Source: Patescibacteria group bacterium (GTDB lineage Bacteria > Patescibacteriota > Minisyncoccia > Phycocordibacterales > JAKFXT01). Taken from it: DNA of 25,952 nucleotides. Under the pieces are notes generated by a model. The model saw only the letters and a list, made by a program, of their open reading frames with translations, was not told where the DNA came from and ran no database searches. The stretch covers positions 1 to 25,952 of the forward strand of contig JBBTWL010000077.1 in the NCBI GenBank assembly GCA_038062775.1, written 5' to 3'. How positions within the stretch are numbered: the stretch's first letter is position 1; each line of letters starts with the position of its first letter. Made by a program: the position numbers and the translations under genes. Positions 14,749-25,952 of the stretch are shown here, in pieces.

Positions 14749-15426
14749 CTACTGTTTTTCCAATGTTTCAACGCGGGGCGGATCGCGCAGAATACGAATG
14801 AGCTGATACTTGAAATCCGTTTTATACCACTCGAGTATTTGTGTCGCGACCCACGAAGGATTAAGCAAGATGCCTCCATACTTTCGCCCCACTTGCATTT
14901 TGGTATTCATTCCGGATGGCCCTACGACAAGTGTTTTTTTTATTCGTGGGTCAAGCGATACTGAAGCGACAAGCATGGCAAGTCCCGCTTTAGTTGCGGC
15001 GTATACCGGTTCTTCCATCCTTGGAATCCACTGCGACGTTGAGGTGATGACAATTAACCCTTGAAGGTTTTTTTGTCTTTGCAAAATTCTCTGGAGTAAC
15101 TTTGCGGGTACTGCAAGACTAATGTTAAGCATTGCATCAATCTCTTTGTCTGTAAGAACATCGAGAGTTCCAATTTGTGAGAACCCAGCGGCATATACCA
15201 AAAGATCAACAGGCCCAATTTTTTCAAGAATATGGTCTAGCTCCTCATCCATATTCTTTGTTTCTGCGCCAATAACAAGAGGAAGGTAAATAAGGGCCAC
15301 ATTTTCTGGATTGTGTTTTCCTGTGACAAAAACTTCTTCTCCTTTTTCACAAAGAAGGGTAGCTAAGGCAAGGCCTAAGCCGGATGTACCTCCAACAATA
15401 AGAACTCTTTGACTATTTGTTTTCAT
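14749..15426 (-). CDS. Short-chain dehydrogenase/reductase (SDR)
   Basis: RVLIVGGTSGLG, LLVYAAG, ITSTS, YAATK (YxxxK). Start set at ATG 15426 (AGGA 7 nt upstream). The ORF-track extension to 15594 crosses a terminator. Confidence 0.85.
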   Translation of the reverse strand: MKTNSQRVLIVGGTSGLGLALATLLCEKGEEVFVTGKHNPENVALIYLPLVIGAETKNMDEELDHILEKIGPVDLLVYAAGFSQIGTLDVLTDKEIDAMLNISLAVPAKLLQRILQRQKNLQGLIVITSTSQWIPRMEEPVYAATKAGLAMLVASVSLDPRIKKTLVVGPSGMNTKMQVGRKYGGILLNPSWVATQILEWYKTDFKYQLIRILRDPPRVETLEKQ

Positions 15427-24726: not shown

Positions 24727-25653
24727 ATGAAAAAAGTAGTTACTCATAGCGGGAATTTCCACACGGATGAGCTTTTGGCCGTGGCAATCTTGAGGCTTAC
24801 CTTTCCGGAGCCATTTGAAATTATTCGAAGCCGAGAGGTAGAAGTGATTCAGTCTGGAGATTTTGCGATTGATGTGGGGGGAATATATGACCCTCCGCAT
24901 GGCCGTTTTGATCATCATCAGGAAGGGGGAGCAGGGAAAAGAAAGAATGGAATTTTGTACTCCTCTTTTTCTTTGGTTTGGAAAGAGTTTGGAGGGAAAG
25001 CTATCAAAGCTTTAGCAAAAAAGCATTCAGTAGAAATAAGCGAAGATCAAACTCAAGATATTTGGAACAGTATTGATGAACATCTGGGAGCTCCCATTGA
25101 CGCGCATGATGTGGGGATGGAAACCGTTTCGCCCGTCTTTGACGGAGTGTATCCCTATTTGGCGCACAATGTTTTCAGCGCATTTCATCCGACGTGGATT
25201 GAAGAGAAAACCTATGACGAAGCGTTTATTGAAGCTCTTCAAGTAGCAATAAAAACTTTATCAGGAGAAATTGTTCATCGTTTGGCGGAGAAGAAGGCGG
25301 AAGAAGAGGTGCTTTCTGTGTACGAAAAAGCGGAAGATAAGAGACTTATTATTCTGGAAAAGAAGTTTCCGTGGAAGGGAATTTTGAGTCGCTTTCCCGA
25401 GCCCCTTTTTGTTGTTGAGCCTGATTTGACCCCATCGCTTTGGAAAGTAGGGGCTGTTCGGGACGACAGGCACAGCTTCAAGAATAGAAAAAGCTTTCCG
25501 CTTACGTGGGCAGGAAAAAACGGGGAGGAGTTTAAGAATTTGACTGGAGTTTTTGGCGCTGTTTTTTGTCATAATGCTCGGTTTGTTGCCATCGCGAAAT
25601 CAAAGGAAGGAGCTATCGCTTTAGCCCGTCTTGCCGTAGACTCCTCAAACTAA
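24727..25653 (+). CDS. Myg1-family protein (DHH-superfamily nuclease-like)
   Basis: VTHSGNFHTDE, DVGGIYDP, RFDHHQ, IDAHDVG, RKSFPLTWAG, VFCHNARF. Confidence 0.88.
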   Translation: MKKVVTHSGNFHTDELLAVAILRLTFPEPFEIIRSREVEVIQSGDFAIDVGGIYDPPHGRFDHHQEGGAGKRKNGILYSSFSLVWKEFGGKAIKALAKKHSVEISEDQTQDIWNSIDEHLGAPIDAHDVGMETVSPVFDGVYPYLAHNVFSAFHPTWIEEKTYDEAFIEALQVAIKTLSGEIVHRLAEKKAEEEVLSVYEKAEDKRLIILEKKFPWKGILSRFPEPLFVVEPDLTPSLWKVGAVRDDRHSFKNRKSFPLTWAGKNGEEFKNLTGVFGAVFCHNARFVAIAKSKEGAIALARLAVDSSN

Positions 25654-25662
25654 GCCTTTTTA

Positions 25663-25697
25663 CTACCAGCTACCTTCTACTCACTACCCACTAATTT
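25663..25697 (+). repeat. Five degenerate heptamers in the obgE leader
   Basis: CTACCAG CTACCTT CTACTCA CTACCCA CTAATTT, then T and the ATG. Confidence 0.7.
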
Positions 25698-25698
25698 T

Positions 25699-25952
25699 AT
25701 GGCTTTTATTGACGAACTAAAACTCTACCTCAAAGCTGGAGATGGCGGGGACGGAGTGGTGCGCTGGCGTCATGATAAGGGGAACGAGTTTGCGGGACCT
25801 TCTGGTGGAAATGGCGGTAAGGGGGGGGACGTCTTTGTTCTTGGAGTTCGGGATATAGGAAAGCTTTAGCAGTATCGTCACGTAAAAGAATTTTTTTCCG
25901 AACGGGGAGGAGACGGAATGAAAGATAGTATGCATGGCAAAAATGGTGAGGA
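25699..25952 (+). CDS. obgE: GTPase ObgE/CgtA, N-terminal part, containing an in-frame TAG; runs off the window
   Basis: Manual translation: [83 protein letters not shown]. The glycine-rich Obg fold continues in the same frame past TAG 25867-25869. Confidence 0.9.

Follow-up and report, generated by a model that had tools for sequence, protein, structure and literature searches.

The window analysed here is the whole of one contig (C77, 25,952 nucleotides) from a Patescibacteria metagenome-assembled genome (MAG; 88 contigs, 637,265 bases, 44.8% G+C, 98% complete as scored under standard gene calling). The last complete gene of the contig, encoding a 308-residue protein, occupies positions 24727–25653 of the forward strand and is followed on the same strand by the 5′ part of obg (25699–25952, codons 1–84), which runs off the contig end at base 25952. 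From the ATG at 25699, 56 sense codons lead to an in-frame TAG (25867–25869, forward strand), beyond which 27 further Obg-like codons extend as far as base 25952. The identity of the gene is given by its translation, by the N-terminus MAFIDELK, and by a match to the NCBIfam Obg_CgtA model TIGR02729 (25705–25950 against model positions 1–82) that has the one TAG within it. The first-pass annotation of the window had reported this amber codon after 56 codons of obg, and it is indeed present, as are the TAG codons said there to end three other genes (at 14749 on the minus strand, 18446 and 20909). The interrupting codon lies 84 nt away from the assembly break.

Searching the genome for the terminal sequence of the window brought up a sister contig, C62, whose first 131 nt (C62:1–131) form a dovetail overlap with positions 25822–25952 of the forward strand (93.1% identical), all nine mismatches being transversions. 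At the codon read as TAG in C77, C62 has TCT (Ser), and the remainder of obg occupies C62:1–852 (locus L002), with a stop codon at C62:850–852; this part matches TIGR02729 over positions 41–328 with 285.5 bits, passing the cut-off of 280.25. A profile search with the same model showed obg to be a sole locus split over the two contigs, and the second copy for which a search had been suggested is absent from the genome. C62 carries lesions of its own close to its start: a GGG>TGG change at C62:4 replaces Gly by Trp inside the conserved GKGGD motif, and a spurious in-frame TGA stands at C62:37–39 (37 nt from the C62 start), where C77 reads GGA. Both of these columns are Gly in C77 and in 10–11 of the 11 aligned relatives, and each contig is thus in error close to its own end and correct deeper inside. 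All three of the changes private to C62 in its first 37 nt are G>T. A run of eight G residues (25821–25828, forward strand) lies within the GGNGGKGGD motif, and C62 begins inside it (C62:1 = 25822); homopolymers of this kind find no support as a general cause of breakage, with only 2 of 17 G/C runs of at least 8 lying 125 nt or less from the end of a contig.

To reconstruct the gene, we used each contig away from its own tip, joining window positions 25699–25866 to positions 46–852 of locus L002. The resulting obg is 975 nt long (324 codons and a terminal stop) and open throughout, and its product resembles the Obg/CgtA/ObgE family of TIGR02729 in its glycine-rich N-terminal Obg fold, its length, and its GTPase motifs G1 (GLPNAGKS, residue 165), G3 (DIPG, 207) and G4 (TKTD, 274). 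The nearest Obg relatives belong to the Parcubacteria/Paceibacteria group of Patescibacteria (Taylorbacteria, Kaiserbacteria and similar); 10 of 11 aligned relatives are 322–329 aa in length and one is 351 aa, the N-terminus MAFIDELK is common to the product and the 11 relatives (all of which start MAF[IV]DE), and the column occupied by the TAG holds Ala, Val or Ile. Once the contigs are joined, no difference from the family is left, and these relatives likewise have the short form, which lacks a C-terminal extension. Across 30 related genomes, obg is free of internal stops in 27. In 4 of the 11 relatives, tblastn places a homologue of the 24727–25653 gene immediately upstream of obg, which supports the order C77 then C62. 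The 268 codons that remain of the gene are open and conserved, with no further decay, and the obg gene is almost certainly intact.

The stretch is present in eight public runs, all of them groundwater metagenomes and drawn from two studies, and we compared the Logan contigs of four (X1, X2, X4 and X6) over positions 25300–25952; these are assembled contigs rather than raw reads and do not show the base counts and qualities at 25868. The independent run X1 supplies one contig of 2613 bases that is gapless over this interval and extends past the window end, and it reads TCC (Ser) at 25867–25869; a 680-base contig of X4, covering 25859–25952, reads TCG (Ser), from which TAG is a single C>A step. 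The contigs of X2 and X6, both probably from the source study, show no differences to the window over the part they cover up to the break, ending at 25779 and 25852 respectively, with X2 restarting at 25907, such that the TAG base falls outside their coverage. TAG at 25867–25869 is therefore found on no contig except C77, with C62, X1 and X4 covering the codon and X2 and X6 stopping short of it. Comparison of C62, X1 and X4 delimits an unreliable tip of C77 (25868–25947, forward strand), in which the three agree against C77 at 25868, 25896, 25897 and 25905, the G at 25869 being common to C77 and X4 only. The letter at 25947 (5 nt from the tip) is probably private to C77 too, since X1, X4 and X2 each hold one further, unlisted difference that is most simply placed there. 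No stop codon arises from the substitutions listed for X1. Moreover, X1 has GGG (Gly) at the TGA codon of C62 and the same letter as C77 at 25825, and the deviations of C62 are thus private as well.

The third base of the Ser codon varies among the three other assemblies (TCT in C62, TCC in X1, TCG in X4), which places the codon in a truly polymorphic patch. Relative to the window and C62, X1 differs at 25857, 25860, 25863, 25869 and 25870 (five differences in 14 nt, four of them synonymous). Over the 550 nt upstream of the patch, X1 and the window differ at two positions, both by transitions. Four independent assemblies break within 25779–25907, and local strain microdiversity is probably what causes the break.

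We compared all contig termini of the genome with one another, and this revealed 20 terminus-to-terminus dovetail overlaps. Four, of 55, 55, 33 and 27 nt, match exactly, as k-mer overlaps should; the other 16 are imperfect, span 41–160 nt and are 93–99% identical except for one (87.5%). Among the longer examples are C36/C42 (160 nt), C24/C66 (129 nt), C56/C84 (123 nt), C13/C3 (118 nt), C51/C67 (100 nt), C21/C40 (99 nt) and C10/C55 (98 nt). The imperfect overlaps hold 61 mismatches, of which 54 are transversions and 7 transitions; the probability of at least 54 transversions in 61 is 8e-5 under unbiased substitution (two thirds transversions) and 5e-19 at a transition:transversion ratio of 2:1. 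Judged from these base changes, the transversion excess reads as an error signature and not as strain variation, and its recurrence at 16 junctions makes tip errors general in the assembly. The A/C or G/T class accounts for 32 of the 61 mismatches. Seven of the junctions have a frame that is clearly open, and of these C77/C62 alone shows private stops, automatic frame choice being unreliable at non-coding or gene-border junctions. A diversity-generating retroelement was rejected as an origin of the clustered changes, as these are not adenine-specific and recur at unrelated contig ends, and Obg is not known to be a target type of such elements.

Because the first-pass annotation had raised amber suppression or programmed readthrough as an option, we searched the whole genome for the means of UAG decoding. 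ARAGORN found no CUA, UCA or UUA anticodon among 38 tRNA genes across the 88 contigs (98% complete; a missed CUA-anticodon gene is possible though unlikely), and PylS is absent above noise, the best PylS_Cterm match in the genome scoring 28 bits against a cut-off of 178; neither the CUA-anticodon tRNA nor the pyl genes proposed for checking were thus found. An RF1-type release factor, whose status had likewise been queried, is present on C48 (370 bits for prfA versus 238 for prfB, with PAT and GGQ motifs), alongside an RF2-type factor on C29 (SPF and GGQ). The stop codon is TAA in 293, TAG in 169 (29%) and TGA in 116 of a set of 578 ORFs that do not overlap and reach at least 100 aa. Beyond the stop, the reading frame stays open for a median of 13 codons for TAG, 18 for TAA and 12.5 for TGA, and extensions of at least 60 codons follow 15%, 20% and 16% of these ORFs, respectively. 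TAG is therefore a frequent terminator with no excess of extension, giving no sign anywhere in the genome that it is read as sense. The lack of a UCA-anticodon tRNA, the RF2-type factor and the 116 ORFs closed by TGA likewise give no indication that TGA is recoded across the genome.

The TAG very probably arose as an artefact of assembly or sequencing at the tip of a contig, and the option that the first-pass annotation had put first, a sequencing or assembly error, holds in that three other assemblies read Ser at the codon. We propose that obg is where the assembly of this small Patescibacteria genome was interrupted, and that both fragments (the end of C77 and the start of C62) kept low-confidence tips with substitution errors. 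In C77, one such error very probably changed a Ser codon (TCN) to TAG, one C>A change relative to the TCG of X4; in C62, a G>T error changed a Gly codon to TGA. The tip errors could stem from low-quality or damaged reads or from a chimeric tip; a point against the artefact reading is that the k-mers used by the assembler there must have come from some process. Assemblers are known to stop at points of uncertainty and to retain sequence that is not unique at the ends of scaffolds (Chen, Anantharaman, Shaiber, Eren & Banfield 2020, Genome Res, PMC7111523). The present case resembles that description in ending at such a point, in leaving overlapping fragments that can be joined into one gene, and in the presence within the MAG of exact overlaps of about the largest k-mer (55 nt here). 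It differs in that Chen et al (2020, PMC7111523) describe perfect k-mer overlaps and variant sequences, whereas the 16 overlaps of 41–160 nt are imperfect and, with their 54:7 excess of transversions, point to erroneous bases in the tips themselves. Our search of the literature yielded general remarks about scaffold ends that are not unique, and no account of transversion-rich contig tips.

An unlikely alternative is that the TAG is a real nonsense allele, in which a minority strain with TCG>TAG in obg (an incipient pseudogene or deleterious variant) was followed by the assembler at the tip. The codon does lie within the patch of real strain differences marked by X1, it is one substitution from a sense codon seen in X4, and with a single obg locus the TAG does not come from a decayed second copy. 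The allele, however, is missing from every other assembly that covers the site and is accompanied by other transversions private to C77 in the 84 nt next to the tip; a tip divergence of 7% is unlike that of ordinary strains here (2 differences in 550 nt upstream), and the transversion-rich pattern is repeated at 15 other contig junctions. The real pseudogenisation entertained by the first-pass annotation fits poorly with a lesion private to one contig tip in a gene that is otherwise undecayed, lacks a second copy and is intact in most relatives. We would give a rather slim chance to a fuller version of this idea, in which a genuine TAG allele in a minority strain of this ultra-small groundwater bacterium would yield truncated Obg or low-level readthrough and a patch of ~50 nt in obg would be a diversity hot spot that breaks every short-read assembly.

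It is very improbable that the last ~85 nt of C77 derive from obg reads of a related organism, which would still make the TAG an artefact, though of another kind. Such a chimeric tip would agree with the behaviour of assemblers at scaffold ends, where non-unique sequence is retained (Chen et al, 2020, PMC7111523), and with the breaks shared by four assemblies. A real homologue, however, would carry no stop, and most of its differences would be transitions and synonymous changes; the letters private to C77 consist entirely of transversions, among them one nonsense change and one that puts Phe-Ser in place of Leu-Ala.

Programmed UAG decoding (by a suppressor tRNA, pyrrolysine or a TAG-sense code) that would read through obg is scarcely credible, sharing with known recoding systems only an in-frame TAG that interrupts a conserved essential gene and is flanked on either side by good Obg sequence, and differing from them in the missing tRNA-CUA and PylS, the retained RF1, the frequent use of TAG as a true terminator, the near-complete score obtained under standard gene calling, and the ordinary residues found at the site in relatives and in other assemblies. 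As far as the contigs show, the site is a sense codon elsewhere and no suppressor exists, the outcome that the first-pass annotation had associated with a TAG that is not genuine.

Read as a contig-tip artefact, the codon has no biological significance and is of practical value for annotation of the MAG. Annotated as is, the genome would present obg as two partial or pseudogenised pieces, with a TAG in C77 and a TGA in C62, from which one might wrongly conclude that an essential GTPase has been lost or that stop codons are recoded in the Candidate Phyla Radiation. The MAG can be joined at about 20 places, and in scans for unusual codons the last ~100–150 bases of every contig in the assembly should not be trusted.

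The genome also contains a perfectly palindromic repeat of ~36–55 nt, dispersed on at least 15 contigs and located at several contig ends, where it accounts for further assembly breaks. One copy, C62:9245–9299, equals C21:1–55, and the repeat reads in both orientations; other copies lie at C2:3164–3203, C48:5666–5701, C52:5790–5825, C81:1794–1829, C63:10933–10968 and C51:7680–7717, and on C38, C8, C49, C23, C64, C3, C11 and C83.
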